Source: Azolla caroliniana
Taxonomy: Eukaryota > Plantae > Polypodiophyta
Direction of reading: 5' to 3'
Length of the DNA: 64,000 nucleotides
Assembly: GCA_043228905.1 (NCBI GenBank)
Contig: JBHGNT010000022.1
Coordinates: 4,836,001 to 4,900,000 of the forward strand
Part shown: positions 7,807 through 64,000 of the stretch, piece after piece
Position numbering within the stretch: position 1 is the stretch's first letter
Layout of the letters: every line of letters starts with the position of its first letter
The notes under the pieces: model-generated
Databases searched by the model: none
What the model was told of the DNA's origin: nothing
Seen by the model: only the letters and a program-made list of their open reading frames with translations
Program-made: the position numbers and the translations under genes

Positions 7807-8188
7807 TGTGGAGTGGCAAGCTCAACCGGATCCAGATTGGCCGAATAAGCCTAAGCCGGATCGGCATCTGGAAGGATGAGCCAGATCAGTGAACCAGTGA
7901 GTAAGTGAGCTGGAGAGCTGGAGGGCCGGTTAGCCGGATCAAGCAGTAACCGGAAGCCTAGTAGCAGCCTAGACTACTAGGTAGTTAATGTCTCGTAGTT
8001 AGTGTCAGACGCTCGTGTGAGCATTGAAGTACACTGTACCTCTGTCAGTCATCTTAGGACTTGTATAAATAGTGTTGTTGAGCACGTTGTATGTACAGAG
8101 AATTTTACAGAGTTGTTGAGAAGAGATTTAAGTTGTTCAACTCTTTCTCTATCTCTCTGCGTACCTTCTGTGTGTTAATCTCTCTCTC

Positions 8189-8223
<35 letters not shown>

Positions 8224-11200: not shown

Positions 11201-13517
11201 AGGTAAAGTATAATGCCGACGGTTCAGTTAACCGGTACAAGGCCCAGTTACTGGCGAAGGGATACACGTAGACCCACGGAATCGATTACGACGAGACCTT
11301 CGCTCCGGTAGCGAAGATGATGATGGTTCGTGTGGTGTTGGCGGTTGCTACGGCAAGGGGGTGGCATCTTCACCAGATGGACGTGAAGAATGCATTTCTT
11401 CAAGGCGATCTTGAAGAAGAGATCTTGTTCATCTTCCAGTCGGAGATGAACAAGTCGACGGTATGCCAGCTGAAGAAATCACTTTATGGCCTGAAGCAAG
11501 CCCCTCGAGCTTGGAATGCGAAGATCACGCACTGGTTGCGTAAGATGGGGTTTGCGGCCTCCAAGTTCGACTCTTCGTTGTTCATTCAACAAGGTCCAGA
11601 CGGTCTGTTTTGTATCTTGCTATATGTTGATGATCTAGTCATCACCGGACCCGGACTCGATGAAATCAGCCGAGTCAAGTCCTAGCTGTCGGACGCATTT
11701 GAGATGAAAGACCTGGGGGACCTTCACTATTTCCTTGGGATCGAGGTGATCCGAAACCCCCGATGACATATTGCTCTCACAAAGACACGATGTGTTGAAT
11801 ATGCTGTGCAAGTTCGGCATGACGGAATGCCGACCGATCTACACACCCCTGGACCGGAACCAGAAGCTCCGTCCCGACTCCGGACCGGCCTGCGATGAGA
11901 AGCGGTTCCGAAAAATCGTTGGAAGCCTTATATATTTGACAATCACCCGACCCGACATCAGTTATCCGGTCGGTGTGATCAGCCAATATATGCAGAAGTC
12001 GACCGTGGAGCACCTTCTGTGCGTGCATCGAATTTTGCGATATGTGAGCGGCACGAAGGACTGGGGACTGTTATATCGGCATGGTATAACTAAAGAGCTA
12101 GTCAGCTACACCGATGCCGACTGGGGTCGGCGATGCATCGGATCGCAGATCCACCTCCGGCTATATGTTTTCCGTGGGTAGCGCGGCTGTTGCATGGAGC
12201 AGCAAAAAGCAGCCAATAGTGGCCCTTTCGAGCACTGAGGCTGAATACTAGGGCTCTACCGTTGCCACCTGTAAAGCTATTTGGCTTCGGCAATTGCTAC
12301 AAGACCTGTGGATCGAGGTGCCAACCCCAATCTTGATCTACTGCGACAACATAAGCAGCATGTAGCTCACCAAGAAGTGCACTATCACTTCGTGTGTGAG
12401 CGTGTCATGAGCGGTGAAGTCGAACTTCGGTATGTTCATACGGATCGGCAAGTTGCCAACATCTTCACCAAACCGCTCGGATCGGACAAGTTGCAACACT
12501 TCACCAAAATGCTTGGTGTTCAGCATCTCGACGTGCCACACTTGAGGGGGAGAACAGAAGACACCAGATTTGGCAAAGGCAAAAAAACTGCCGATTGCGC
12601 TGGTGCGGGAAGAACTGACAAAGGGAGAGACAAGAAGGAGAAAGGAGCCGAGTCGACAAAGGAAGTTGACACATCTGAACAAGTCAGAACAAGCGGCAAC
12701 GACGACACAATCAAGAAGGACAGAGTCGATTGGAAGGAGGCCAAGACCCGGACATGGTCCGATGTGGTGAAGGGCCTGGAACCAGAAGATGAATTAGGAG
12801 CGACCGATTCGGACAGTAGCTAGAACGAATCAGAGATAGCCGATTCAGTTCAACAGACGGATTCAGAAGAACCGGATCAATTCAAGCGGCGAACTCACAG
12901 CAGCCCAGGGACCTGAATTGGGCCTGCTGAGCAGACAAGCCGACCGAGGAGGTCGAGGTCCGCAAAATCAGAAGGGTCGCGGCAAACGGAACCGGACCGG
13001 ACGAGGAGCCGGGTGGAAGGACCGACTGTCATGGAGATTGACACTACGATCCGACCTCAAGTTGAGCTTGAGGGGGAGGGAGTGTTGAGCGACAAGCTCA
13101 ACCGGATCCGGATTGGCTGAATAAACCAGAGCCGAATTGACATCCGAAAGGATGAGCCGGATCGCTGAGCCGGTGAGCAAGCGAGCCTGTGAGGTAGAGG
13201 GCCGGTTAGCCGGATCAAGTAGTAACCGGAAGTCTAGTAGCAACCTAGACTACTAGGTAGTTAATGTCTCGTAGTTAGTGTCAGACGTTCGTGTGAGCAT
13301 TGAAGTACACTATACCTCTGTCAGTCATCTTAGGACTTGTATAAATTGTGATGTTGAGCACGTTGTATGTACAAAGAGTTTTATAGAGTTGTTGAGAAGA
13401 GATTTAAGTTGTTCTGCTCTTTCTCTGTCTCTCCTACGTACCTTATGTGTGTTAATATCTCTCTCTCTCTCTCTCTCTCTTTTACTATCCGGCTAAGCCG
13501 GTTATCTACCACTTCCG
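7807..13517 (+). mobile_element. Ty1/copia A3, full-length but degenerate; LTRs 7807-8276 and 13083-13517 (3' end clipped)
   Basis: PBS TGGTATCAGAGC at 8277. Gag ATG at 8381 (MASSLPVEKLD). Protease WYIDSGAS, integrase, RT YVDD, RNase H. PPT CTTGAGGGGGAG at 13067. Similar LTR pair. Confidence 0.92.
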
Positions 13518-15649: not shown

Positions 15650-17126
15650 GCGTGAAGTCCCAACTGGCCGCATTGTTTGAGATTTTAGGATCTTGGGGAC
15701 CTTTACTACTTCCTCGAGATCGAAGTGATCCGCACCCCCGAAGGCATACTAATCAGCCAACAACATTATGTGCTGAGTATGCTCGTCAAGTTCGAGATGG
15801 CATGTTGTAAATCCATTGCAACTCCTCTAGATAGAAACGTCAAGCTTCGCCAAAATTCGGGAATAGCATGCGGCCCGACACGGTTCCAACAAATTGTCGA
15901 AAGCCTGATATATCTGATCATCACTCATTCAGACCTCAGCTATCCAATTAGACTTATTAGTAAATGTATGTCGGAGCCGATGAACGAACATTTTAGTGCG
16001 CACAAAGCATCTTACGATATGTAAGCAACACAAAGGATTGCTATATCGGGCAGATGTAACCGAACAGGTAGTCAACTACACAGATGTCGACTGGGCCGGA
16101 AATGTCAGTCATCACAGGTCCACATCAAGGTTTACATTTTCATAGGGAAGCGCCGCGATCGCTTGGAGCAGTAAGAAGTAGCCAAGAGTTGCACTGTGAG
16201 TACCGAGGCCGAATATCAAGGAGTGGTTGTTGTGACATGCGAAGCCATATGGCTGAAAATGCTCGTGAAGGATTTGCAAGTTGAGGTGTTTGAACCAATA
16301 ATCATATACTACGACAACCTTAGCAACATTCAACATGCGAAGAACCCTGTCTTCCACGCCCGGACAAAGCACATTGAGGTGCACTGTCATGTTATCCTTG
16401 AGCGATTTCTCTCCGGTGAAGTAGAACTTGTATACGTTTCGATGAATCGGCAGGCTACCGATATCTTCACCAAACCTCTCGACCTGGGCAAGTTGCGGCA
16501 GTTTTTGAGCATGCTTGGCTTGAAGCACCTCGACATTCCGAACTTGTGGGGGAGAAATAACAAAAAGGAGAGAGATTAAGGTAGCGTAAAGGAGGGAGAT
16601 GAAGTCTGAAAAACCGAATCAGATGTGGATTTCGATTTCGGGATCATTGAAGAAGCCGAGGACGGATGTAGGGGGAGCAACGAAAAGAACGAGCTAGAGC
16701 CAACCTAAAAAGGCAAGGTAGGTGGCTGAGCCAAGAAGGGAAGAGCCACATTGAACAAGAAGGCAAGGAACAAGGCATTGGCAGATGTGGTCAAGGACCT
16801 ATAAGAAGACGAATCGGAGACAACTGATTCGGTCAAGTGGTATGATTTGAACAAGACGAATCAGATAAAGGCAAGATGCACGAGAAGGCAACCGAAGACA
16901 ATGCCAAGGCGGGAGAGCCAATGGATCGAGGGGCGCTGAAGTCGCACAGGTGAGGAGAAGGCTGACGAAGGCCTTAGCAGCAAACAAGCCGACTGCGCAG
17001 GTGGAGGAGGGACGGACAGGATGGGACATGCAGCGCGAGCAAGGCATGAGGACTTCTAGAGGAGTCATTTGCAAGGACTGGATGCACTTGACACAACAAA
17101 CCAACCTCAACTTGAGCTTGAGGCAC

Positions 17127-17677
17127 TGTGAGCGAACAAGCTCAACATGGGTCGGACCTATTGGACAAGCTGGTAGGCCAGACCAGAATCGATCTGGTTG
17201 GCTAGGCCCACTTAGGCTGATAAGCCTAAGCTTCGGATTGGGTTCCGGACCGAATGCCGGATCGCTTGAAGAAGTCAGATACCGGATGTAGATGATGGAC
17301 TGGGTGTTGGATCTGGATGACAGAGCGACTGTGGAAGCCGATCCGGAACGTCACACGTGCTGATTAGACCTATTCTAGTAAATAGGCCTAATATAGGCAG
17401 TTAGTGTTAGAGGCTCTTTTCAGAGCATTAAAGTACATGTCAGTACTTCATGACAACCCTATCAAATGGGCTTGTATATATAAAGTGCATTTGAGCTCTA
17501 TTGTTTTTACGGAGCATTTTGTTATAGAGTTATCTGTTGTCTTCTCTCACTGAGTCTCTCTCTCTCTCTCTCTCTCTCTCAACCTTACTTTGTGTTAAAA
17601 CCTAACTATTATACCTCCAGATAACCGACTATGTACTCTGTGTGTTTCATATACACTTCGACACGTATTCTTTTACA
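17127..17677 (+). repeat. 3' LTR of copia A1
   Basis: TGTGAGCGAACAAGCTCAAC...TTTTACA, with the same terminal motifs as the other family-A LTRs. Preceded by a degenerate PPT. Contains TATATAAA and a (CT)n tract. Confidence 0.75.
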
Positions 17678-19772: not shown

Positions 19773-22700
19773 CATGTGCCTTTATTTATAGTATTGTCAG
19801 GAGTTCTCTTGAATTTTCTAGAATGTTCTAGAGTAATTTGGAATATATATGAATTTCCTAGAGTGAAATAATAAATGAAAATAATATTTTTCATATTACA
19901 ATGCATGGTTTAATGGTAAAGGTTCAACCTTAGTTACATAATGTCATGGGTTCAAATCCTTATGTTACAATGCATGGTTTAATGGTTCTTGAAGACTTCT
20001 ATATTGACGATAGAAGTCTTCAAGAAGATCTTAACCATTCGCCAAAATTCGTCACTGCTTCCCAAGTACACTTGCTTGGACTATAGCCTTGCTAATCGAC
20101 CAAATAATAGAGCTTGTTGCAAACCATCTTGGAATCGAGGATGACAACAACCTCGTACTCAGGCCCATCTTCAAGTTCGATCTGGGGTGAAGATGGTGTA
20201 ATACGATTTGGGATAGTGCTGTCTTGATAGGGTTCTAGAAGAGAACTATGAAATACCAGATGTATCCGTATTTTGGGAGGTAAATCAAGGTGAAAAGTGA
20301 CATCATTAATTTTCCGTTAATACGGAAAGGGCCTAACCGTCAATAATCCAGTTTGTCACACGGTCGACTAGTCTTGATGTGTTGTCATAATAGCCATACT
20401 CAATCTCCAATATCAAAAGAGGATGGAAGCCGATGGCGATCCACATAGTCCTGTGTTTGCTGGGTGCGATGTAGATGGATAGATAGTTCCACCTGAATTC
20501 ATCGTAGCCACTCCAAATGATCCTCTGCACAAGGATTTTTGGGTAACTCAGGAGTTTCTAACACACAACAATGAGGACGATAGCCAATATAAGCGTAGAA
20601 TGGTGTAACCCCAATAGAGGAGTGGATAGAATTATTATAAGCAAATTCAGCAATGTGTAGAATATCTGACCAATCATTGGTACGTTCTGCTTGTCCATCT
20701 GTTTGGGGATGATAGCCGGAGGAGAGATTGCAAGTGACCTTGAGCATTTTGAAGAGATGCTGCCAAAATTTAGAGACGAATTGAGGTCCATGATCACTGA
20801 TGATATTGTCGGGAACACCATGATGTTGAAATACTTCACGCATAACAATTGCTGCGGTTTCTTCACTAATAATTTATTTAGTACGGGACACGAAATGTGC
20901 CATCTTAGTATATTGATCTACCACTATTAAGAGCACATTGAAGCCCTTCGAATCCAAAAGATCTGTAATAAAATCTAGAGAAATAGATTGCCACATTTTG
21001 CTGATCAGTAACGGCTCCAACAAACCATATGTATCACATGTTCGAACATAGTCTTCAACAAATCTTCGCATATGGGGCCACCAAAATGATCGTTGTACTA
21101 AATCCAACATTTTAGTATTACCTAAATGTCTGGGTGTGTATGTGTCATGAAAATTTTGTACTATTCGAAGGCGACAAGAATCATTGGGAACATACAAAAG
21201 TTTTTTAAAGAAGAGTAAACCATCATGACATTTGAATTGTCGATAATCCGTACCTGGTTGTTGTGACTGTGAACAAGATACTCGAGAGGAATCGACTTGA
21301 TCTAGAATAGCTTGAGCAAAAAAATTTGTCTTCAAATCTTCATGTATGGTATTGATAATGTGGGAATCAAATGGAGTGTCAAAAACCCACGTTGCTTGAA
21401 GTTGTGATGGACACAAGATTACTTGCTTTTGATTGTCAAAGGCTGGATCACTAGGACAAGGAGCTATATACGAGCATCATGATAATGCATGTGCCTTCCC
21501 TTGTTGCTTGTCCGAACGATAATCTTGAAGTTGAAACGAGTGAGGAACTGAGCCCACTGAGCTTGTCATTTATTTAACATGCGAGCATTATCGAAGTAGG
21601 CAAGATTCTTGTGATTAATAAATACAATGACTTGATGAGGAGATCCTTCTAGAAAATGCCTCCATTGTGCAAAACAGTCCACCATTTGTTGAATGCGGGT
21701 CAATGAATGTATTCATATTGTCTCCCTTTCTACACACTAGGGTTAGGCTATTTATGTAAATAGTGAGAAGGGCAGTTGCCCTAAGTAGTCATCATATAAA
21801 CTGACTTTGTAACCTAGCTTTTGGTTGTTGCAATTATAGTTCATCTTGCATTCTTGTTGATATTCCTTCTATTCTGTTTGTAGTTGCCATCAATGTTCTT
21901 CATTGCATTTATCAATGATCTCCTCACAGAAGAGTGTTGAGATTGTTCTGCACCTAGAAGGCCGTGTTCTCAACACTATTGCTAATAGCTCCTTGTCATG
22001 TATTGAAAAGAATTGCGTGCGGAAGCAATATAGGAAATAGAACAACAGAAAACGCAGGTTTAATGGAAAGCTTAGGTTTGCATAGTACACATGGGAGAGA
22101 TAGAGAGAGAGTAAAACACTAGAGCTTAATTCAAAAATAATACTCGATCTGTACATACGTCGTGCTCAGTGAGCACCTTTTATACAAGCCTTGACAATGG
22201 GCTAACACAAGTACTGACAATACTTGACTGCTCATAAGTGAGCATTGACACTCACTTCCAAAATTATTCCTTTACGAGGAATATCTCTCTAACGGCCTTT
22301 CGGTTTACACACCGATACGGCCTTCCTACGCACCGGTCTGCGTACTGGTTTACGCATCCGTTTTACGCACCAGTCCGGCCTAACCGATCAGTCCCAACTG
22401 ATCCGGTCCTCAGCTTGCTCAGCCGATCTGGCCGCTGTTGAGCTTGTCTCTCAACACTCCCCCTCAAGCTCAACTTGAGGCTCTTCCGGATCTTTCGGAT
22501 CACCGCTCCGGTTCCTCCTAGCTCCACGCCTCGCTCGCGCTCCTCGGCCTGTTCGACTCCGCACGCTTCGACCCTTCCGGTCGGCTTGTCTGCTCCCACG
22601 GCCCTTCAGAGCTCCCTTGCTGTCACGGTGTTGGCGCTTCTCCTGCTGCCTTCTTTTCCGCTTGGCCCTCAGTTGATTCAGTGTATCCGAATCAAACATT

Positions 22701-23427
22701 CGAGCCGACTCGACTACCTCCGATCGGTTTTCGCTCTCGTCTGAGTTGGTTGTCTCCAACTCGTCTTCGGTCTTCTCACCCTGGACAACGTCATCCCCCC
22801 CATGCTTGGTTGGCTCCAGCTCTTTCTTTCGGTTGCTCCATGTCCGCTCTTCCGCTCGTTCGCCCTCAGCTTCTTCAGCCGATCCGGAATCGAATTCGTC
22901 ATCTGACTTGGTGTCACGGTCTTTTCCGCTCCTTTCCTAGTCCCTTCCGTGGTCATTCGGGACGTCTCTCCCCCTCAAGTTCGGCATGTCGAGGTGACGC
23001 AACCCAAGCGCACCCGATGTCAGGAATAGTACTAAAACAGAGATGGAATTAGTACTAAAGAAGAGCAGTACTATTAGTACTAAGAGGACGGGACTGCGTA
23101 AGACTCCCGAGAGAGGAAGTGAGAAGAGGAGAGAGAGAGATAGCGAGAATGAGAGAGAGAGAAAAATGATGACAGCAGCTAATATATTATGTGAAAGACA
23201 AGTACAAAGCGGATAAGAGGCTTAAGACTGGCGTTTAACCAATTTGGTTCAACATAATGCCTAGTGCCTTCTTTTATAGTGTTGTCAGGAGTAATCCTGA
23301 AACTTCTAGAATGTTCCAGAGAAATCTGGAATATACATTACTTTAAAACATAAATGAAAATAATATCCTATGAATTACAATAGATGGTGTGATGGTTAAG
23401 AGCTCGACCCATATACCATAAGGTCAT

Positions 23428-34475: not shown

Positions 34476-37400
34476 TGTCGAATACATGTGTATAATGGAC
34501 GTATTCACACTATCCCGTTTTGGCCATTTATGTAATTAGCATAAAGGGTAGTTGCCCTAAGTCGGTCACTATATATAGTGACCTTGTAACCTTTTTGTGA
34601 GGTTGGATGTTGTATTATTGCTTTGTGAAATAAAGAGTCTTTTGTGTCTCTCTCTCTCTCTCTCTCTCTCTCCTTGTGCAACGACCTACATTCTGTCATA
34701 CGCAGGTACTCAGCAAGAATCGAATGCTTCTTGATCTTCCGCAAAGACGACCTTCCTCGTCTCCAACATCTGGTATCAGAGCAGAGGTTCGGCCGTCATC
34801 ACCGCCTGCACAGCATTCGGTTCTTCAATTCATCACGGCCTGCACAGTATTCGCGTCATTCGAAGAAAGAGAGAAGAAGAACGAAAACGAGGTTTGCACC
34901 TCATCGCGTTAGATCCCCTTGCTTGGAGTAAGCCAGCAGGTTGTACTCTGTCCCTTGTGATCGTAACCGCTCGAGGTGAAATCCCCTTGTGCAACTTTGA
35001 CAACAACCCAAATTCGTTCTTCATCTGGCTGATCGACATTCGGGAGGATCAGTCGGATCCGTCTCTCTCGTCGCTGCAGTCACCCGAAGCCGAATCGGTC
35101 CAGATAATCGGTTTCAATAATCGGTATTCGGCATATATATCCGAAACGAACCGGGCTCACTCCGACTCGGCAACATTCGGGAAGACCAGTCGGTTCTGTC
35201 CCTCAAGTTACCGGAGTCAATTCGAGCAAGTTCCGAAGCCGAACCGACTCGGGTTCAAATTCGACTAGAACGATATCGGGTGAGCCAACCGGCTGCACTC
35301 CAACAAGGTTCGTAGTCAACTCCGAACCGAGCTTCGTCAACCGAAACCAAATTTGATGGCGTCAACATCCGGCTCGTCAGAAATGAGTCTACGAAAGTTC
35401 GATGGATCGAACTTCAACTTCTGGAAGGAACAAATGCAGGACTATCTCATAGTCAAGGGGCAAATCGACCCCATCGAAAATGAAGAACCTCCAGAAGGAT
35501 ACAAACCAATTGAGTGGCAGAAGCTGGACAGAATCGTCCGCGCCACGATTCGGATGCACCTATCGGAATCGGTATATTTTACGGTGCAATCGTGTACGAC
35601 AGCATTCGAACTGTGGAAAACACTGTCGGACACTTACGAAAAGAAGGTCGCCGCAACGAAGATGTTTCTAATTCGGCGCCTCTACAACTTGCGGATGAAA
35701 GAATCCGACTCGGTTCAAGCACACCTCAATGAGTACGAAAGCATAAGCTCCCAAATCTCGTCACAGGGGACGGCAATCGAGGATGAACTCAGAGCAATGA
35801 TACTCATGAGCAGCCTTCCCTCATCATGGGAAACTTTCGTCACAACCGTGTGCAACGCGTCAACCACGGCTGTTAAATACTCCGAAGTCACGAGCGCAAT
35901 CCTGACCGAAGCAGCTCGGAGAAAGTCTTTCGCCAAAGACTCAACAGATGACGCTTATGTAGTACAAGGTTCGACAGACCGATCGAACATACGAGGAAGA
36001 GATTCCTCACGGCCGCCGAACAATCAGCGAAGACGGAGCCAGTCACGGGATAACCGAATCTGCAACTATTGCAAGAAACCCGGACACATCAAAGCCGACT
36101 GCCGCGCACTCAAGAACAAGAACAACAAGAAGAGTGGCCGGCATGAGGAGATCAATTACGTCAGCTTCTCAGCTGATGTACTACCGGACGACCCGAATAT
36201 ACTATCAATAGAAAATCCAGTCGGATTAGAAGTTCTACTCACGACTGAAGAATCGAGCACATGGCTCTTGGATTCGGGCGCGTCATTTCACGTGACTCCT
36301 CATCGATCCCAATTTCGGCAATATACGATCCGTCACTCCGACTCAGTTCGAGTCGGCAACTCACAACACTGTGACATCGTCGGAATCGGCACAGTAGAGC
36401 TCAACCTTGCAGGGGGCTCTACACTTGTACTCCACAATGTCCGACATGTACCCGAGCTCACAAGGCCATTGATCTCAGTCAGACAACTAGATGAAGACGG
36501 CATTCGTGCCGGTTTTTCTTCGGGAGGGTGGACACTCCACAGGGGGAACCTCCTGCTTGCTAGAGGACCCAAGATACACTCACTGTATCCGTTACATGTT
36601 ACGCTCAGAGAGGGTAACCTGTTTTTGGTGGATATTCCTGTGTCATCATTATGGCACCGAAGATTAGGACACCTCAGCAAGGCCGGCATCACGCACCTAT
36701 CTAGCGCCGGATACATCCCCAAACTCTCCTTCTCGGACTATCAATTCTGCGAGCATTGCCAGTATGGCAAACAAGTAGCCGCATCACACCCGACATCAGC
36801 ACCAAGAGAAACGAGACCTCTCGATTTAGTCCATTCGGACGTCTGTGGCCCAATGCCGCATCAGTCTCTAGGCGGTGCCTCTTACTTCGTCAGTTTTATT
36901 GACGATTCGACTCGAAAGGTGTGGGCTTATCCAATTCGCACCAAAGATCGTGTCTTCTCGATCTTCACCGATTGGCTCGCTATGGTAGAAAATCAAACCG
37001 ACCGAAAGCTGAAATGCCTTCGGACAGACAATGGGGGAGAGTTCAAATCTGATGAATTCGTCAAATTCTGCCGACAACGCGGCATCCGACGTGAATTTAC
37101 AGCACCACACAGTCCGGAGCAAAACGGGATTGCCGAACGAATGAATCGGACAATCCAAGAAAGGATAGTTTCCATGCTCCAACACTCCGGACTGTCGGAT
37201 GGCTTCTGGGCAGAGGCTCTACTCACGGCAGTACACATAATCAATATGTCGCCAAGTAGACCTCTAGGACTTCAAATTCCTCAGGAACTATGGATCGGCA
37301 GTAAGCCGAATTACGACAAGCTGAGGATCTTCGGATGCGAGGCGTACGCCCTTATTCCGAAAGATGATCGCCGAAAACTTGCACCTCGGTCCAGGAAATG

Positions 37401-39853
37401 CATTTTCCTCGGATATGGATCCGACGGCGAAATGGGATACCGACTCTGGGATCCCGAACGCAGACAAATCGTCCGAAGTTCGGACGTTGTGTTCAACGAG
37501 TCGGCTATGACTCCATCAATCGAAAAACCGATCGAAGTCCGAAGGGTAACATTTTCCGATGTGCCGACCCTTCAAGAAGGCCCCGCTCTCAACACACGGT
37601 CAGCTTCACGGGTAGCTGAACCTTACACTACCGACTCGGACAACTCTGACTCGGCACAGCCGAATGATTCGGTTTCGGACCATCCGACCTCGATACCCGA
37701 TGCGACCAGTCCAATCATACCTCGACGATCCGAGAGACTGTCGCAACCTCCGGAGAGGTATTCTCCTGGAATTTTCTTCACCGACGCCGGCGAACCGACG
37801 TCTTACGAAGAAGCATCGACATCTGTCGATTCCGCCACCTGGCATCTGGCGATGGAGTCGGAAATGCACTCCATCCGGGCAAACAAGACTTGGGATCTGG
37901 TCGAATTACCTAGGAACCGACGTGCTCTTCCTTGCAAGTGGGTTTATCGACTAAAAGAGACGTCTGATTCGACCACCCCAAAGTACAAGGCCAGATTAGT
38001 TGCGAAGGGCTTCCGACAAGAATATGGCGTCGACTTCGACGAGATTTTTTCACCAGTGGTGAAAATGACAACCCTTCGTTTCCTACTCGGCGTAGTGGCA
38101 GCCGACAACTTGGAGCTGATTCAGCTAGATGTCAAAACAGCCTTCCTCCATGGTGATCTTGAAGAGGAAATCTATATGGAGCAGCCAAAAGGCTTCGTGG
38201 CAACTGGCCAAGAACATCTAGTCTGCCGACTCAGGAAGAGTCTATACGGCCTCAAACAGGCACTGCGACAATGGTACAAGAAGTTCGACGACTTCATCCA
38301 ATCGATCGGCTTCTCCAAAAGCGATGAGGACCATTGTCTCTTCACCAACACAGCTCAAGATGGATCACCCATCTTCCTCATCATTTACGTGGACGACATG
38401 CTAATTTCTGGACGCCACGCGGGCGAACTTGCCGATCTCGTTCGGCAACTGCGGTTGAAGTTTGCCATGAAGGACCTCGGTCCGGCACGACACATCCTTG
38501 GCATGAAAATTAGTCGGCATCGCGATAAACGACATCTCTTTTTGTCTCAGACCGACTATATCGGACGTGTCTTGGAACGCTTCAACATGCAATCAGCCAA
38601 ATCTACTTCAACCCCGCTCCCAATGAATCTTCGGCTCTCTCAGCGAGACTGCCCGACATCCGGCCCGGAGGGGGAAGATATGAAGTCGGTACCGTATGCA
38701 CCGGCAGTCGGCTCCCTTATGTACCTGATGGTCGCGACACGGCCTGATATTTCTCACGTCGTAGGAGTCGTTAGCAGATTTATGCACAATCCTGGCCGAT
38801 CGCATTGGAACGCAGTCAAGCATGTGTTCAGATATCTGGCTGGCACAAAAGACCATGGCATTCTTTTCGGTCCGAACCGAACCTCAGGCGTAGTCGGCTA
38901 CACCGACTCGGACTTCGCCGGCTGTATAGACAGTCGGAAATCAACAACCGGATACTGTTTCAAATTCGGCAATGGAGCAATCTCGTGGAAGTCGAAACTT
39001 CAGGAGTGCACAGCGACCTCAACGACCGAAGCAGAATATGTAGCTGCGTCCGACGCAGCAAAAGAAGCTTTGTGGCTCGGTCGGCTGGCGCACACGTTTC
39101 GACAAGTCGACCATGACTCAGCTCCAGTTGTCTACAGCGACAGTCAAGGTGCTGTTGCCTTGTCGAAAAATCCGGTTCACCACAACGCCTCCAAACATAT
39201 CGACGTTCAATACCACTTCGTTCGGGACTGCGTCATTTCAGGGAAAGTCGGTCTAGAGAAAATATCCACAACCGACAATGTCGCAGATGGAATGACCAAG
39301 TGTCTTTCGGCAGACCGTTTTCGGTCTCTTCGGCATCAGATGGGCGTAACGACAAACCAGTCCGGTTAGAGCCGGACACAGAGCAGGATGGTTCCCGACA
39401 ACCGACATCAGTTCCTTAATGATCGGCTTCAACTGTTCCGAACCGACCAGTTCGGTCTTCTGCCTTCGGACCCTGCCGACTCGAACAAAGCTGATATGTC
39501 CGAGAACCTAAGTCTATACCTGTAATCTTAGATAACCCATGTATACGCCCATTACGGGGGAGTGTCGAATACATGTGTATAATGGACGTATTCACACTAT
39601 CCCGTTTTGGCCATTTATGTAATTAGCATAAAGGGTAGTTGCCCTAAGTCGGTCACTATATATAGTGACCTTGTAACCTTTTTGTGAGGTTGGATGTTGT
39701 ATTATTGCTTTGTGAAATAAAGAGTCTTTTGTGTGTGTGTCTCTCTCTCTCTCTCTCCTTGTGCAACGACCTACATTCTGTCATACGCAGGTACTCAGCA
39801 AGAATCGAATGCTTCTTGATCTTCCGCAAAGACGACCTTCCTCGTCTCCAACA
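34476..39853 (+). mobile_element. Intact, recent Ty1/copia D2; LTRs 34476-34768 and 39563-39853
   Basis: Exact TSD CCGGC. LTRs identical except for the (GT)n(CT)n tract. PBS TGGTATCAGAGC at 34771. PPT ACGGGGGAG at 39554. Single uninterrupted ORF. Confidence 0.97.
35356..39369 (+). CDS. Copia Gag-Pol polyprotein (gag, CCHC, protease, integrase, RT, RNase H), 1337 aa
   Basis: CNYCKKPGHIKADC, WLLDSGASFH, LWHRRLGH..CEHC, VHSDVCGP, LRTDNGGEF, QNGIAERMNRT, YVDDML, YTDSDFAG, KHIDVQYHFVRD. Confidence 0.97.
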   Translation: MASTSGSSEMSLRKFDGSNFNFWKEQMQDYLIVKGQIDPIENEEPPEGYKPIEWQKLDRIVRATIRMHLSESVYFTVQSCTTAFELWKTLSDTYEKKVAATKMFLIRRLYNLRMKESDSVQAHLNEYESISSQISSQGTAIEDELRAMILMSSLPSSWETFVTTVCNASTTAVKYSEVTSAILTEAARRKSFAKDSTDDAYVVQGSTDRSNIRGRDSSRPPNNQRRRSQSRDNRICNYCKKPGHIKADCRALKNKNNKKSGRHEEINYVSFSADVLPDDPNILSIENPVGLEVLLTTEESSTWLLDSGASFHVTPHRSQFRQYTIRHSDSVRVGNSQHCDIVGIGTVELNLAGGSTLVLHNVRHVPELTRPLISVRQLDEDGIRAGFSSGGWTLHRGNLLLARGPKIHSLYPLHVTLREGNLFLVDIPVSSLWHRRLGHLSKAGITHLSSAGYIPKLSFSDYQFCEHCQYGKQVAASHPTSAPRETRPLDLVHSDVCGPMPHQSLGGASYFVSFIDDSTRKVWAYPIRTKDRVFSIFTDWLAMVENQTDRKLKCLRTDNGGEFKSDEFVKFCRQRGIRREFTAPHSPEQNGIAERMNRTIQERIVSMLQHSGLSDGFWAEALLTAVHIINMSPSRPLGLQIPQELWIGSKPNYDKLRIFGCEAYALIPKDDRRKLAPRSRKCIFLGYGSDGEMGYRLWDPERRQIVRSSDVVFNESAMTPSIEKPIEVRRVTFSDVPTLQEGPALNTRSASRVAEPYTTDSDNSDSAQPNDSVSDHPTSIPDATSPIIPRRSERLSQPPERYSPGIFFTDAGEPTSYEEASTSVDSATWHLAMESEMHSIRANKTWDLVELPRNRRALPCKWVYRLKETSDSTTPKYKARLVAKGFRQEYGVDFDEIFSPVVKMTTLRFLLGVVAADNLELIQLDVKTAFLHGDLEEEIYMEQPKGFVATGQEHLVCRLRKSLYGLKQALRQWYKKFDDFIQSIGFSKSDEDHCLFTNTAQDGSPIFLIIYVDDMLISGRHAGELADLVRQLRLKFAMKDLGPARHILGMKISRHRDKRHLFLSQTDYIGRVLERFNMQSAKSTSTPLPMNLRLSQRDCPTSGPEGEDMKSVPYAPAVGSLMYLMVATRPDISHVVGVVSRFMHNPGRSHWNAVKHVFRYLAGTKDHGILFGPNRTSGVVGYTDSDFAGCIDSRKSTTGYCFKFGNGAISWKSKLQECTATSTTEAEYVAASDAAKEALWLGRLAHTFRQVDHDSAPVVYSDSQGAVALSKNPVHHNASKHIDVQYHFVRDCVISGKVGLEKISTTDNVADGMTKCLSADRFRSLRHQMGVTTNQSG

Positions 39854-55200: not shown

Positions 55201-57715
55201 CCGCAGATGTCATGTTAGGATACCCTTGGTTTTTTAATAAAAAACCTTCTTTGTCCATTGATTGGGTTAATCACTCAATCACATTTGAACTTAATAATTG
55301 TAAACATTTTATTCAATGTTCCAAACTTCCTTCTCGTTCACTTGTATCTTCCAAATCTTTAAGTGAGTATTCTAGTTCATTAATTTATTCAGTGTAATTG
55401 ATCCTGCGCTTCAATTTTATTACTTTAATATTGATGCCACACAATTACCACATTATGAACAACGATTACTCGACTCTATTTTAGATGATTTTCAAGATGT
55501 GTTTTCTAACGAATTGCTGCTTACTTTACCACCAAAACGAAATGTGGACCATCAAATTTAACTCATCCCCAGTGCTACTCCTGTGAGCATTCCACCTTAC
55601 CGACTTAGTCGATTAGAAGAGGATGAGATCGCTAAACAACTTAAGGAATACTTGAGTATGGGCCACATTAGGTATAATAAATCACCTTGGGGTGCGCCAG
55701 TTCTATTACTTAAGAAGAAGGAAGGTTCATGGCGAATGTGTATCAATTATCGCCGTTTGAATAAAATGACAATTAAAAATGCATATCTGTTACCTCCTGT
55801 TGATGATTTGATTGATCGTTTGCATGGGGCCCGATATTTTACGAAAATTGACTTACGAACAGGTTATCATCAGATTCGCATTGTCGAGGATGGTATTCCT
55901 AAAACCACTTTTCGTACGCGCTATGGCCATTATGAGTTTTTTGGTCATGCCTTTCGGGTTGACTAATGCTCCAGCCACATTCCAACAAGCGATGAATGAC
56001 GTTTTCCGAGATCAACTCGGTGATTTTGTTGTCGTGTTCTTGGATGATAATTTTGATATAGAGTTGTACCTTGCAAGATCATGTTCAACATGTTCGATTT
56101 GTTTTGCAAAATTCGCGTGACAACTCTTTCTATGCAAAACATTCAAAATGTGATTTTTTTCCCAAAATCTATTATGTACCTAGGTCATTTAATTACAGAA
56201 ATGGCGTTGAAATTGAACCTTCTCGTATTAAAAAGGTTAAACTTTGGCCAATTCCTCATAATATTCGTGAACTGTGATCATTCTTAGGGTTTGTTGGATT
56301 TTTACGAAATCAATTCGTAACTATTCCAAATTGACTACGCCATTAACAGACCTTTTAAAAGGTCATCCACGTAAGTCTATCAAACCGATTTCATGGAATG
56401 AACACCGTTGCAGATGCTCTTAGTCGCATTAAAGAAGTTAACATGCTTAGCTTCACGGAAGTAAAATCTGATCTTTTAGATCACCTTCGAGGGAAATACC
56501 TTGATGATAGTTATTTCTCAAAATACTAGACGAAAGCCAAATCTGGTTTAGATGTCGTTACTAGCACCCTACCCTCAAAGGCGACCTTTCACATTACAAA
56601 CGGTTTGCTCTACCATAGTGGAAAGGTTTGTGTTCTAGATTTACCAACGTAAAATAGAAAATTCTTCATGAATGTCATGATGCACCATCTACGGGTCATC
56701 CTGGAATACAATGCACACTCGTTCTAATCTCAAGTACTTTTTTCTGGCCTAAGATGCACTCTAACATGCATAAATGCGTAACTCAATGCTTAATAAGTCG
56801 GAAAAACTTAAAGATGTTGATCTTTTACATCCCTTAGATATTCCCAACAATAAATGGGAAAGTATCTCGATGGATTTTATTGTTAGTTTACACCGTACAT
56901 AGAGGGGTCATGATGCCATTTGGGCTGTCATTGACAGACTAACAAAATTGGCTAGATTTATTCCTACCAAAACCACGGTAACCGCTAAACAATTTGCTTA
57001 TCAATTTGTTGATGAGTTATTTCGTTTTTATGGATTACCGATGGATATTGTTAGTGATCGAGATTCCAAGTTTACTAGTGACTTTTGAACTCAAGTCTTT
57101 AAGAAACTAGAAACTACATTGAGCGTGAGTTCCGCAGATCATCCTCAGTCTGATGGACAAACTGAAAGAGTTAATCAAATTATTGAGGACATGCTTCGAG
57201 CTTATGTAGCAAAAACCCCTTCTAAGTGGGAGCAATACCTTCCTATCTTAGAATTTTCCTATAATAGCTCTAAACATACATCCACTGGATATAGTCCTTT
57301 TATGTTGATGTATGGTTTTCAGCCACGTTCCCCAATCGATGTGCATATTGCCAAAGAAAATGTCAAAACAGCTCAAGATCGTGATCGATTTTATGTTGAT
57401 CGGGAGAGACATCCTCGTGCATTTACTATTGGTCAAAAAGTTTTTTTGCGTGTCCCTACTAACTCTACGTTGAGTTAGCCCCACGATATTGTGGCCCATT
57501 TGAAATCCTTAAGCGAGTTGGATCATCTACTTATCACCTTGCCTTACCCCGTAATGTTGGTATTCATCTTGTTTTTCATGTCAATCGTCTAGAACCATTT
57601 TTAGGCTCTAGTGATAACACCATCACAATCCAAGATCTTGTAACATAGAAGGATTTTTCTTACAAACCTCATGTTCCTGAATGAATTCTTGATTCTCGTA
57701 CCAAACATTTACGTT
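52218..57715 (+). mobile_element. Ty3/gypsy chromovirus G4 (tRNA-Met primed), 3'-truncated; 5' LTR 52218-52692
   Basis: TGTTA..TAACA LTR. PBS TGGTATCATAGC at 52694. Gag from ~54017 with [29 protein letters not shown]. Integrase HPQSDGQTERVN. Ends in a chromodomain start. RNase H deleted at ~56400. Confidence 0.88.
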
Positions 57716-58960
57716 GATTGCCCTAAGCTATATTTATATTTATATGAATTTTGGGCTATTTACAAATATAACCTCAATAGGCTAACCATGAAACATATTT
57801 ACACATATGTCCTTTGATCCGGTTTGCACTGGATCCATCCGGATTCACTCGATCCGGTTTTCGGGTCTCATCCGGAACCCTTCCGGATCCGATTCCTTCA
57901 TCTGACTCGTCCGATCCGGCTCCCCCAGTTCTCATCCAGATCCCATCCGGAGGGAACAAATTCCCAACAAACTCCCCCTTCACTCCAGCATGGGATTTCT
58001 CGTTAATCGGACCCGTTTCCGGCACGTGTCCAGTTTGTCAGCTGACAGCACCTTGGCCAGTATATCCGATCCGTTCTCCTTCATGTGGATCTTCATTAGC
58101 ACGAAGTCTTGGTCTTCTACTCTCTCCCGAATCCAATGATACCTCCGCTGGATGTGCTTCGTTCGGGAATGGTAGGCCGCATTCTTCGCAAGGTGGATGA
58201 CACTTTGACTGTCACAGTAGAGCCGGAATTCCTCCTACCAGATCCCTAGCTCTCTGATGAAGTCCTTCATCCAGATTATCTCCTTGGTGGCTTCCATAGC
58301 TGCCATATACTCTGCTTCCGTTGTCGACAGTGCAACAGACTTCTACAGCCTCGACTGCCATGATACAGCTCCCCCTACATAAGTCATGACATATCCAGAT
58401 GTAGACCAGTTGGTATCCACATCAGCTGATATATTTGAATCCGTGAATCCGTCAAGTTGGGGTTTACCAGAGCCAAACCGGAGGCACATACTCGAGGTGC
58501 CTTTTAGATACTGGAGTATCCACTTGACCGTGTTCCAATGCTCTCTTCTAAGATTGCTCATGAACTGGCTGAATACTCCGACAACATATGCAATATCTGA
58601 TCCAGTGCACACCATTGCGTACATTAAACTTCCGACAGGAGAGGCATATGGTATCTTCGTCATATCCGAGTTCTCTGTCTTTGTCTTCGGGCTCTACTTT
58701 CCGAACAACTTGCAATTTGCCGAAAGTGTCGATCTGACCAATTTCACCTCTGATATGTTGAACCTTTGAAGCACCTTTGTCACGTACTTCTCATGTGACA
58801 ACCACAACAGCTTCTCCGACCGATCCCGGATTCTGTGCATCCCTAATATTTGTCTTGTCGAACCCAAATCTTTCATTGAGAAAGTCTGGTTCAAGGCCTT
58901 CTTTAGCATTCGGATCTTGATTCGGTCTCGTCCGACTATCAGCATGTCGTCCACATATAG
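57716..58960 (-). mobile_element. Copia B3 fragment (RT end, RNase H, PPT, partial 3' LTR 57716-57969)
   Basis: YVDDMLIVGRD, GFTDSNISADVD. PPT at 57970. LTR start TGTTGGGAA. Confidence 0.88.
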
Positions 58961-61682
58961 CCACAGTACCCTTGGACGGAGACACGCCACAGAGAGTATG
59001 GACCGGCAAGGAAGTATCCTACCGGCATCTAAAGGTGTTCGGGTGTCTCGCGTATGTGCATGTAGCTAAGGACCGGAGAGGAAAGTTAGATCCAAAGACC
59101 CGGCCATGCATATTCCTCGGTTACGGTGACGATGAGTTCGGCTACCGAGTGTGGGACCTGGTCGACAAGAAGTTATTCCGGAGTCGAGATATTATCTTCA
59201 TGGACGACAAGAAGCTCGCCGACTAGGAGTCGGAGAAGAAGATAATGAACTCCGAGTCGACCGGTAAGGATAGACTCTACGATGAGCAGACCCGACTGGC
59301 AAGAGACCGGTTAGCACTCGAGGGACCAGCCGGTTACGGTGAGGATACCGAACAGGCTGAAGAAGAAGTAGAGGAAGCTGAAACCGGAACCGGCCAAGAC
59401 CCCGAATCGGATTCAGATGAAGAGCAAATGGAAGAGCCGGTTACCGAAGCCCGAAGATGGAGATATCCTCTCAAAGAGAGAAGGGCACCCCGGAGATCTC
59501 CGGATGCAGAGCATGTTCTGCTGACCGATGAGGGGGAGCCGGAAAGCTTCGAAGAAGCGAAGGATGACACCCACAGCCGCAAATGGTTAAGTGCCATGCA
59601 AGATGAGATGGATTCCCTGCATGAGAACCATACGTACGAATTGGTGGAGTTGTCGAAAGGAAAGCGGGCACTCCGAAACAAGTGGGTGTACAAGTTGAAA
59701 CCGGGAGATCCCGGCAACCCCCCGAGATACAAAGCCAAGATCATGGTGAAGGGGGTCCAACAGAAAAAAGGGCGTGGACTTTGACGAGATATTTGCCCCG
59801 GTAGTAAAGATGACCTCCATCCGGACGGTGCTGAGTATAGCGGCAAGCATGGACCTCGAGGTAGAACAGCTGGACGTGAAGACGGCATTCCTTCACGGCG
59901 ACCTCGAAGAAGAGATCTACATGCAGCAACCGGAAGGATTCGTGGAGAAAGGGAAGGAGCACCTGGTATGTCGGTTGAAGAAGAGCCTGTACGGACTGAA
60001 GCAAGCTCCCCGACAATGGTACCAGAAGTTCGACTCCTTCATGACCAATCAAGGGTACCACAAGACGCAGGCCGATCACTACGTGTTTGTGAAGAAGTTC
60101 GAAGGAGGTGACTTCCTGATACTCCTTCTGTACGTGGATGACATGTTGATCGTCGGACGGGACCAAGTCAAAATACGGATGCTGAAGAAGGCTCTCAACC
60201 TGACCTTCTCAATGAAAGACTTGGGTCCGGCAAGACAGATGTTGGGGATGCATATCATCCGGAACCGGCCAATGAAGCAATTGTGGCTGTCACAGGAGAA
60301 GTACGTGACAAAGGTGCTTCACCGGTTCAACATGTCATATGCGAAACCGGTCGGATCGACACTTCTGGCTAACTGCAGGTTATCCAGTAAGCAAGAGAAG
60401 GCGGTTATGATGAAGATTCCATATGCCTCTGCCGTCGGGAGCTTAATGTACGCAATGGTGTGTACTCGACCGGATATAGGATACGTAGTCGGAGTGGTGA
60501 GCTGGTTTATGAGCAATCCCGGCAAGGAGCACTGGAACGCGGTCAAATGGATACTCCGGTATTTGAAGGGCACTTCAAATATGTGTCTCCGATTCTGCTC
60601 CGGAAAACCTCAACTTGACGGTTTCACCGATTCGGACATGTCGGCTGATGTGGATACTAGCCGGTCTACATCCGGGTATGTAATGACATATGCAAGGGGA
60701 GCTGTTTCGTGGCAGTCGAGGCTGCAGAAGATGGTTGCATTGTCAACCACGGAGGCGGAGTACATGGCGGTTGTGGAAGCCGGCAAGGAAATATTATGGA
60801 TGAAGGACTTCATTGGAGAGCTCGGTATCCGGCAAGATGAATACCGACTCTATTGCGACAGTCAAAGTGCCATCCATCTTGCTAAGAATGCGGCCTACCA
60901 TTCCCGGACGAAGCATATACAGCGAAGATATCACTGGATCCGGGAAAGAGTAGATGACTAGGAGTTCGCACTAACGAAGATCCACACGGCCGAGAACGGG
61001 TCAGATATGCTGACCAAAGTGCTGATACCCGACAAGTTGGACGCATGCCGGAAGAGGATCGGACTAGTAAGACACCCCATGCCGGAGTGAAGGGGGAGTT
61101 TGTTGCGAGACAGGTCCCTCCGGATGGGAAGGGAGGAGAAGAGTGCTGATGAACAAACTCATCCTCCGGAACCGGATGAGGAGTACCCGGCTACGGAGAG
61201 CCGGATGGTGCAGACCTAGTGAGAACCGGATGAAGAGACATATTCGTAAATATGTTTCTGAGAGTCCATAGAGGCTATATTTGTAAATAGCCGAAAAGTC
61301 ATATTAGTATAAATTTGACTTAGGGCAAACTTTTAGTTGTTGTTGTCATTCTTGTTGGTGCAAGGAGAGAGAGAGTGTGTAACTGTGTACATAGAGAGAG
61401 AGAGAGAGAGAGAAAGAGGTCGTTGCCTCTGTTGTAACCGCCGCCTGTGGCGAGGATCGTGAGCACGAGGTCGTTGCCTCCGTGAACTCACTATTGTACA
61501 TTCTAGCATAGTGATAGTTTGCAGCCTGTGGGCTGCCGTGGTTTTTCCCTTACTTTGGGTTTTCCACGTAAACATCCTGTGTACTCTTCTCTCTTCTGTG
61601 TCGAACATCTATTTCCCGTTTTCTGTGTATGATTCTAAGCTTGCTTGTGGCCGAGCGTTGCGAAGCGTTTTAGTTCCCGTCA
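58961..61682 (+). mobile_element. Copia B4, 5'-truncated (integrase end, RT, RNase H, 3' LTR 61101-61682), inserted in the D0 5' LTR
   Basis: 395-aa RT-RNase H ORF at 59774-60961. PPT AGTGAAGGGGGAG. LTR with one 54-bp unit. Very similar to B2. Confidence 0.92.
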
Positions 61683-62001
61683 GAACAACAATATGTGATG
61701 GAGATCAACAAGTTGATGAGCAACTAAGCAAGATGTGCATATTAACAAGTTGAAGGCAAACTAAACAGAAATCAAGATCTAAGACAAAGTGTGAGAGAGA
61801 GACACACAAAGGGGCCCAAACAGAGTAACTGTATTATTCAAATGTTACAGTACAAAAGAATGGAAACAATAGTCTTCTCATAAACTAGGTTACAAGCTTA
61901 GTATATATAATAACTAAACTAGGGCAACTGCCCTTTAGTCTAATTACAAACATGTCCAAGTGGGACAGTGTGAATATGTCCATTATACCCCGTATTCGAC
62001 A

Positions 62002-62417: not shown

Positions 62418-64000
62418 TGAAAACGATTACTTGCGGAAATGTTAGAAAACTGAGAAAGCAGAGAATACACAGAGTACACGGGAGAGACAGAGAGAGCAGA
62501 AGGTAAAAGCTATATCCAAAACAATATAAACACTCTCTATCACTTACAACTGTGCTCAGTAGCATTATTTATACAAGTCCTCGTGGGACTGACAGAAGTA
62601 CCGCGTACTTCAATGCTCACACAAGCATCTAACACTTACTACGAGACTATAACTGCCTAGTAGTCTAAACTAATACTAGGCTTCTGGTTACCGATTGGAT
62701 CCGGCTAACCGGCTCTATTGCTTGCCAGTTTGGTTGCTCGTCGGCTTACCGATCTGTCTCGCTCACCGGCTCAGGCTTATCCAGCCGATCCGGCTCCAGT
62801 TGAGCTTGTTGCTCAACACTCCCCCTCAAGCTCAACTTGAGGTTGGATCCTAGTGTCAGCCTCTATGGCAGTCGGTTCTTCCAACTGACTTCTCTTAGCA
62901 TCGCTCCGCCTTGCTCGCGCTCCTTGTCCAGTCCGGTTCTGTTTGACACGACCCTTCTGGTTCTGCGCGTCTCGACCTTCTTGGTCGGCATGTCTACTCA
63001 ATAGGCCCCTCTCAGCTCCTTCGCTGCTATGACTCCGGTGCTTGCCGATCCGTCGGCTCCTCCGCGATGGCATCGACTTTCGTTGCATCTATGTCTGCTT
63101 GGCCTCCAGTTGATTCGGTTCATCTAGATCCGTCTGTTGGTCCGAATCGATTGTCCCTGATTCGTTCCAGCTCTTGTCCGAGACGGTATCCTCCGACTCG
63201 TCTTTCGGTTTAAGGCCCTTCACCACATCATACCACATCCGGGTCTTGGCCTTGCTTCCATCCTTGGCTTCTTCAGCCTCCTTGTCTCCCCCTCTTCCGG
63301 TTCTTCCCTTACCAGTGTCGGCAACAGTCTCTTTGCCTTTGCCCGTTCCGGCAGTGTCTTTGCCCCTTCTTCTCCCCCTCAAGTGCGGCACGTCGAGATG
63401 TTGAACACCAAGCATGTCGGTAAAGTGTTGCAACTTGTCTGATCCGAATGGCTTGGTGAAGATATCGGCAACTTGCCGATCCATGTGAACATACCGTAGT
63501 TCAACTTCACCGCTCAGGACCCACTCACGCACAAAGTGATAATGCACTTCTATGTGCTTCGTGCGAGCATGGAACACAGGGTTCTTTGCGAGTTGCATGC
63601 TGCTGATGTTATCACAATAAATCGGGATCGGGGTCGGTACCTCGATCCGCAAGTCTCGTAGCAGTTGCCGAAGCCAAATGGCTTCACAGGTGGCAACGGT
63701 CGTGCCCCGATACTCAGCCTCAATGCTTGACAGAGCCACAGTTGGTTGCTTTTTGCTGCTCCACGCAACAGCTACGCTCCCAAGGGAAAACATAAAACCG
63801 GAAGTGGATCTGCGATTTGACGCATCGCCAGCCCAGTCGGCATCCGTGTAACCGACTAGCTCTACGGTTATACCTCGTAGGTATAACAGTCCCCGGTCCT
63901 TCGTGCCACTTACATATCGCAGTATCCGTTGCGCGCACTGAAGGTGCTCCACGATCGGCTTCTGCATGAACTGACTTATCATTCCGACCGGATAGCTGAT
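62418..64000 (-). mobile_element. Copia A4, 3' part (RT end, RNase H with extension, 3' LTR 62418-62818), inserted in the LINE; runs off the window
   Basis: YTDADWAG, SSKKQPTVALSS, KHIEVHYHFVRE. PPT at 62819-62830. LTR similar to A3. Confidence 0.92.

Follow-up and report, generated by a model that had tools for sequence, protein, structure and literature searches.

The window analysed here, 64,000 nucleotides of Azolla caroliniana DNA (contig JBHGNT010000022.1, G000:C22:4836001-4900000), is packed with nested LTR retrotransposons, among them four copies, A1 to A4, of a Ty1/copia family referred to as family A. In this family, Pol continues beyond RNase H and terminates at a TGA within the start of the 3' LTR, and the additional part is a charged tail of about 140-255 amino acids which is fused in frame to the Pol end. 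The tail is flanked by two copies of the 12-mer CTTGAGGGGGAG, located at 63383 and 62830 in A4 (spacing 553 nt), at 22979 and 22468 in A2 (511 nt) and at 12541 and 13067 in A3 (526 nt); in A1, decayed versions reside at 16543 and 17117 (574 nt). The four spacings given in the initial annotation were all reproduced. The features of the four copies are as follows.

63384..64000, minus strand: end of RT and RNase H of the A4 copia Pol, according to the translation and related Pol proteins; runs off the window
63372..63383, minus strand: A4 upstream PPT copy (the 12-mer), translated as (H)LRG; relatives usually have their Pol end at this position
62813..63371, minus strand: A4 tail, in frame over about 185 codons, interrupted by a single stop (63091) and ending at TGA 62815-62813 in the LTR
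63212..63253, minus strand: A4 KAKT-x-x-W-x-DVVKGL motif, with amino-acid constraint across subfamilies
62906..62935, minus strand: A4 RTG-x-GARARR Arg/Gly motif, with amino-acid constraint across subfamilies
62798..62837, minus strand: A4 11-bp inverted repeat around the 3' PPT and LTR start; codes VELEGEC
62837-62827 and 62808-62798, minus strand: arms of the A4 inverted repeat
62830-62819, minus strand: A4 3' PPT
62440..62818, minus strand: A4 3' LTR (TG...CA)
22451..22979, minus strand: A2 upstream PPT copy, tail with one internal stop (22939), 3' PPT and LTR stop
29828-22004, minus strand: whole A2 element, LTRs 92.5% alike, with a gypsy insertion nested inside
12541..13088, plus strand: A3 upstream PPT copy, internally shifted tail, and 3' PPT in which 4 nt are duplicated
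7807-13517, plus strand: whole A3 element, LTRs 85.5% alike
16543..17135, plus strand: A1, an old copy with a one-frame tail containing seven stops and with both PPT copies damaged

It had been proposed that the frame runs past RNase H to the TGA of the LTR, and translation of A4 and A2 bears this out, as in both the frame extends from LRG to EGEC-stop and is broken by a single internal stop. In A1 the single frame was recovered as well, but it is interrupted by seven stops, the 3' PPT is damaged, and the frame ends in ...ELEAL-stop. The compensating shifts that had been suspected in A3 are present and, together with the 4-nt duplication in the PPT, leave this copy out of frame at the LTR TGA. 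The start of the LTR was fixed as TGTTGA by the 5' LTR, the 5-bp target duplication and the PBS of A2. The tail length of 170-190 amino acids proposed before is too narrow when all copies are considered, since lengths range from about 417 to 768 nt genome-wide; here and below, genome-wide counts refer to the 523-Mb genome, and only natural copies were compared.

Two further copia families reside in the window. The first, at 57715-61700, has a Pol which ends in ...HPMPE-stop directly before its PPT, and a second piece of this family, 1.2 kb long and inverted, is found at 57718-58960. The second, at 34476-39853, has a 1,361-codon ORF, LTRs that are 98.3% alike and a normal Pol end after RNase H.

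Family A among Ty1/copia elements

By structure, family A, which is present in at least 2,996 copies in the genome, is an ordinary Ty1/copia element. The domains are arranged in the order Gag-PR-IN-RT-RNase H between direct LTRs (Pseudoviridae-type), and relatives of the family carry the rve, RVT_2 and copia Gag Pfam families. A2 possesses TG..CA LTRs, a 5-bp target-site duplication, a tRNA-Met-type PBS (TGGTATCAGAGC) and a PPT directly before TGTTGA. In 12 longer elements, fetched for RNase H in long frames, single ORFs of 1,019-1,528 codons extend from gag or pol to the tail or the LTR TGA, and LTR pairs, at most 97.4% alike, were found in 9 of them. The one-frame Gag-PR-IN-RT-RNase H, the PBS type and the 5-bp duplication are shared with canonical single-ORF plant Ty1/copia elements, as are a AGGGGGAG PPT with a flanking inverted repeat and a Pol that ends in words coded by PPT and LTR, as far as these elements are described in PMC2829016. 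The nearest database relatives are P0004, P0006, P0011 and P0014, and the P0016 cluster holds proteins of Adiantum nelumboides. In a tree for which 12 of 15 offered family rows were kept, and which held no labelled SIRE or REXdb lineage sequence, family A forms a clade (92/97) beside ENA proteins and among short-ended relatives, indicating that the long tail is derived.

The family differs from canonical elements in the extent of Pol. The position of the Pol end was obtained for 113 of the 120 best-scoring related Pol proteins, and 104 of these end at most 45 amino acids past ADxFTK, whereas Pol of family A runs about 160-280 amino acids past this motif; six relatives with more than 100 amino acids in this region appear to be fused or repeated gene models. 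Similarly, classic copia elements are described with one PPT and a mean linker of 78 nt (PMC2829016), whereas family A has two PPTs 0.4-0.77 kb apart with coding sequence between them. Extra sense coding between RNase H and the 3' LTR and more than one identical AGGGGGAG PPT near this LTR are features in common with SIRE/Sirevirus (Maximus) elements as these are characterized in PMC2829016 and PMC6317226. However, SIRE1 has a suppressible stop and other Sireviruses a separate env-like eORF, while the tail of family A is fused without a stop; the SIRE eORF often contains membrane segments, while the tail is hydrophilic (11-17% hydrophobic residues) and has no membrane stretch. Sireviruses carry 3-5 PPTs, family A two, and the last Sirevirus PPT is placed 10 bp upstream of the LTR (PMC2829016), whereas the terminal PPT of family A abuts the LTR. 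The size of the element, about 6 kb with LTRs of 0.4 kb, is a further difference. Thus, with neither several identical PPTs of which the last lies 10 bp from the LTR, nor an eORF that is separate or behind a stop, family A is not a Sirevirus by PPT layout and eORF form.

The ends of the tail

The C-terminal PQVELEGEC had been listed as a protein motif, but it is explained at the DNA level by a hairpin arm, the PPT and the LTR start. VELE corresponds to the left arm of a 10-11-bp inverted repeat, the right arm of which lies inside the LTR in all six groups, and EGEC to the PPT and the LTR start. An inverted repeat around the PPT which extends into pol has been described in classic copia elements (PMC2829016, in its account of that region). 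Of the two identical 12-mers flanking the tail, only the 3' one has the hairpin and the LTR start; the upstream one, read as LRG, is a second PPT copy without hairpin. This upstream PPT is conserved as such: it is nearly invariant in all groups, and the divergence of its five successive third positions between subfamilies is 0.00-0.11, a conservation at the nucleotide level. Among the 19 third positions that precede it, 7 are similarly low (0.25 or less), which gives a rough p of about 0.007, calculated by hand. The typical ends of the scored relatives, LRGS.., EGEC and SPT/APA, are three readings of one PPT. As 104 of the 113 relatives end within the short distance given above, typically in such PPT-coded words, LRG of family A represents the ancestral Pol end, and the 12-mer on the upstream side of the tail is a further PPT copy.

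Genome-wide, 2,996 junctions were found in which tail sequence comes after the RNase H end with the 12-mer, and none in which an LTR start does, as would be expected for a tail-less copy; a looser pattern gave 55 matches, and no tail-less family A copy occurred among the 30 that were examined. Spacers of 200 nt or less were observed five times, each in a different, unrelated copy. However, a clean deletion between the 12-mers would also remove the hairpin arm, and the absence of tail-less copies is therefore not evidence for the protein alone. There is no conserved stop directly after LRGR, which had been named beforehand as an observation that would speak against an extended Pol.

Several related arrangements were observed in passing. 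The closest database relatives, P0004, P0123 and P0006, end 52-65 amino acids past ADxFTK, and P0004 and P0123, seen as proteins only, carry two words resembling a translated PPT, SLG(G/E)S and TRG(R/S)V, separated by about 16 amino acids, possibly a short form of the two-PPT layout. In a diverged relative (L169, G000:C3:9307485), Gag-protease is joined to RNase H through an internal deletion, and an in-frame tail of 87 nt ends in VELEGEC with the same hairpin. A tail-less copia family of the same genome (L176, G000:C4:6502217) has its Pol stop as a TGA inside the same PPT word. Two pairs of junctions between the RNase H end and the upstream PPT lie close together on G000:C1, one at 8704636 and 8704810 (174 nt apart, same strand), the other at 7854500 and 7854708 (208 nt apart, opposite strands).

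Selection on the reading frame and on residues

The reading frame of the tail is kept open by selection. In a sample comprising 60 of the first 68 listed RNase H-end junctions (2 had already been sampled and 6 in close pairs were left out), the 3' PPT was located in 49 copies, and the tail was in frame in 34 of these copies, which were not picked by their tail (p=3e-7 against one third). A stretch of 550 nt of pol from the same copies was in frame in 29 of 42, and the frequency of stops per codon was 0.0056 in the tail and 0.0052 in pol. A second sample, defined by a point variant close to the 3' PPT and including some other families, gave 13/25 in-frame tails and 11/19 for pol. Loci collected with tail queries were in frame in 26/30 (A4), 25/29 (A2, one dropped) and 25/29 (A3, one dropped) cases, and old A1-like copies in 8/15 (15 dropped). 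All 30 loci picked by RNase H protein alone were in frame, and their tails fall into 13 length classes between 540 and 768 nt; the window copy is among these loci, as are two copies whose internal shifts compensate each other.

Length changes and stops conform to this picture. Length variants common to at least two copies were multiples of three in 10/13 cases in the tail and in 8/29 in the LTR (Fisher p=0.006), the three exceptions in the tail being one-base changes present in two copies each; indels in the tail are hence not random with respect to frame, whereas frame-random indels at a dN/dS near 1 had been named as an observation that would refute the original proposal. A majority stop at the modal length was found in none of five subfamilies (highest 7/21), while about 9-12 fixed stops are expected under neutrality over a net tree length of 0.63 substitutions per site. 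The other two sense frames contain a median of 3-7 and 9-14 stops, and mononucleotide shuffling of six stop-free natural tails almost never preserved an open frame 0 (at most 4 of 5,000 cases). On the reverse strand, none of the frames stays open throughout the five subfamilies, and the low ratio in one reverse frame, considered as a sign of an antisense gene, mirrors the sense third positions.

Selection on the residues is a different matter: most of them evolve almost neutrally, and clear constraint is restricted to KAKTxTWSDVVKGL and RTGRGARARR. Net dN/dS between the five subfamilies was 0.34-0.91 for the tail, the interval remaining below 1 in only 4 of 10 cases, compared to 0.03-0.17 for an RNase H control from which 10 frameshifted copies had been removed. 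On a frame-blind DNA alignment, third positions of the tail exceeded the first two in all 15 subfamily pairs, which are not independent of each other, at ratios of 1.01-1.98 (5 at p<0.05). The corresponding ratios in RNase H were 2.9-15, apart from one pair that failed, probably owing to an out-of-frame reference copy, and the LTR showed no significant excess in this test. Pooled over the whole tail, pN/pS was 0.88 [0.73-1.07], again on a frame-blind DNA alignment. In segments that were first chosen by eye, net pN/pS amounted to 0.29 [0.12-0.46] for KAKTxTWSDVVKGL and 0.25 [0.09-0.46] for RTGRGARARR, both with normal synonymous change, and to 0.66-1.2 for the 5' variable part, the acidic core and the linker; the last 37 codons of RNase H gave 0.58 in this test, in which frameshifted copies were left unfiltered. 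An unguided sliding scan of 14 codons arrived at the same two motifs (0.29 and 0.17), the minimum having p=0.002 by column shuffling, and a count over 125 copies yielded 0.44 and 0.45, compared to 0.29 for RNase H. Accordingly, a selected C-terminal extension, as it had been postulated, is backed by the frame, stop and indel tests as an in-frame segment of low complexity, but the notion of a domain is not, since dN/dS of the whole tail is close to 1 and the constraint is carried by two short motifs.

The motifs are not universal. The large and successful A2-type subfamily has lost the Trp motif. The tail word EEFDFG, which may be an FDF-type DDX6/Dhh1-binding motif, is gone from other subfamilies, and 11 of the 125 copies match neither the Trp motif nor the FDF-like word.

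Possible roles of the tail

The tail consists of 36-44% charged and few hydrophobic residues in alternating acidic and basic blocks, contains Lys/Arg clusters whose net charge reaches +8 per 20 residues, and accommodates large in-frame indels; its sense strand is rich in purines (A+G 66-69%, T 11-13%). Composition and indel tolerance indicate that it is likely disordered. AlphaFold modeling of RNase H plus tail, from an alignment of only 10 rows, gave a mean pLDDT of 33, low even over RNase H, so that this model does not bear on disorder. Homologues outside family A were not found in any of the Pfam, Atlas, word-seeded and profile searches. A Pfam scan of five tails and two RNase H-tail proteins returned nothing at curated cut-offs, a word-seeded search among proteins of 668-2000 amino acids, which is weak evidence, nothing at E<=0.001, and the best score in the ESM Atlas was an uninformative 0.78. 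A tail profile had 243 matches among 1.84 billion representatives; the best 45 of the 243 are fragments of family A itself, and ten clusters that were looked up comprised nine nameless ENA records and one JGI hypothetical protein. That the tail arose from the LTR, Gag or IN-RT linker of the element itself was rejected, as neither a significant DNA match (best E 0.15) nor a significant profile match (best iE 0.069, compared to 0.33 for reversed controls) was obtained. The longer tails of a 732-nt subfamily (L123-L150) contain a segment CMLCGGHH-x4-H which resembles a degenerate zinc knuckle and which is absent from shorter subfamilies.

We favor the view, at a probability of roughly 55%, that translation likely yields the tail as a disordered arm on RT-RNase H, or as a fragment cleaved from it, which would act likely through its two short motifs. 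That its protein product matters in some way appears rather probable. The weak amino-acid constraint over the tail as a whole and the loss of the Trp motif or the FDF-like word in some subfamilies (see above) count against such an arm. It might be hypothesized that Pol once ended at the first PPT and grew longer as the functional junction between PPT and LTR shifted 0.4-0.77 kb downstream. The original PPT has probably persisted and, by analogy, probably primes a second plus strand: the central PPTs of Ty1, HIV-1 and Arabidopsis EVADE, likewise conserved upstream of the 3' PPT, start the plus strand (PMC7197481, for these elements). The putative primer of family A differs from these central PPTs in that it lies only 0.4-0.77 kb from the 3' PPT, at the RNase H end. 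Translated together with Pol, the flexible arm, or the piece released from it, would bring along an Arg/Gly motif predicted to bind nucleic acid, which probably aids RT in holding or annealing nucleic acid while strands are transferred and displaced, and a Trp motif for which docking on a protein is predicted. Nucleic-acid binding through the Arg motif would be the likeliest of the roles considered, but such binding or chaperoning as the main role of the tail is a tentative suggestion. Gag keeps its own zinc knuckle and an RG-rich stretch, and the IN-RT linker its basic cluster, so that the tail replaces nothing that is missing. The full scenario, in which an arm born between duplicated PPTs served as RT-tethered chaperone and host-docking peptide, went along with two-primer synthesis and aided the lineage in reaching thousands of copies, is rather doubtful as a whole.

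The main rival explanation, though itself unlikely, assigns the spacer a role at the level of RNA or DNA, by the distance between the PPTs, packaging or folding; it would be free of stops only because ribosomes would then terminate near the polyA site and the genomic RNA would escape nonsense-mediated decay (NMD), the peptide being a tolerated by-product. A frame that is strongly kept open although most residues drift speaks for this explanation, the purine-rich sense strand and the conserved upstream PPT agree with it, and long 3' UTRs are reported to predispose plant copia RNAs to NMD (PMC5580714, as far as it deals with these RNAs). Constraint at the RNA level, however, would not result in low pN along with normal pS as observed in the two motifs; furthermore, Sireviruses tolerate non-coding linkers of 0.5-4 kb according to the description in PMC2829016, and PMC3962487, in the part bearing on this question, also counts against it. 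About equally unlikely, the tail may be a module on Pol for nuclear import or for chromatin or integration targeting, acting through basic clusters and the Trp motif. The Lys/Arg clusters would suit such a role, and the products of some extra retrotransposon ORFs are nuclear by the account of a review (PMC7264820), but the tail is attached to RNase H and not to integrase, a basic cluster is already present in the IN-RT linker, and no targeting domain was matched in Pfam, Atlas or HMM searches. A neutral purine-rich 3' linker, kept open by its low T content and changing length in steps of three by slippage, is largely excluded and highly improbable even though the pN/pS interval of the whole tail includes 1, given the stops in the other sense frames, the shuffles that are almost never open, the frame-random LTR indels and the lack of a fixed stop over the tree.

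In copia elements, RNase H is nearly always the last part of Pol, and the 3' additions described so far form env-like ORFs of their own, with an unclear use. A disordered, motif-bearing arm fused to Pol, with an open frame selected across many subfamilies, would be another route to gained function. The REXdb survey, in its treatment of extra ORFs, counted only eORFs of at least 250 codons and removed those within the polyprotein in some elements (PMC6317226), and standard surveys of this kind would therefore miss a fused tail. The review of additional ORFs, where it addresses these, covers separate env-like and antisense ORFs and no fused hydrophilic tail (PMC7264820); a description of the present tail was not found in the open-access literature, supplements excluded. 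Multiple PPTs have been reported as unique to Sireviruses (PMC2829016, in its comparison of PPTs), and family A extends them to elements outside this group. Since the case separates selection on the open frame from selection on residues, the question of NMD versus protein becomes testable.

With regard to possible expression, contigs of the runs X1 and X2 cover the element, with no GT..AG joint among the rows listed. The X1 contigs pile up over the RNase H end and the tail (L160:6461-7081; window 62677-64000), far above IN/RT or LTR, which may reflect library bias, derivative copies or a subgenomic RNA.
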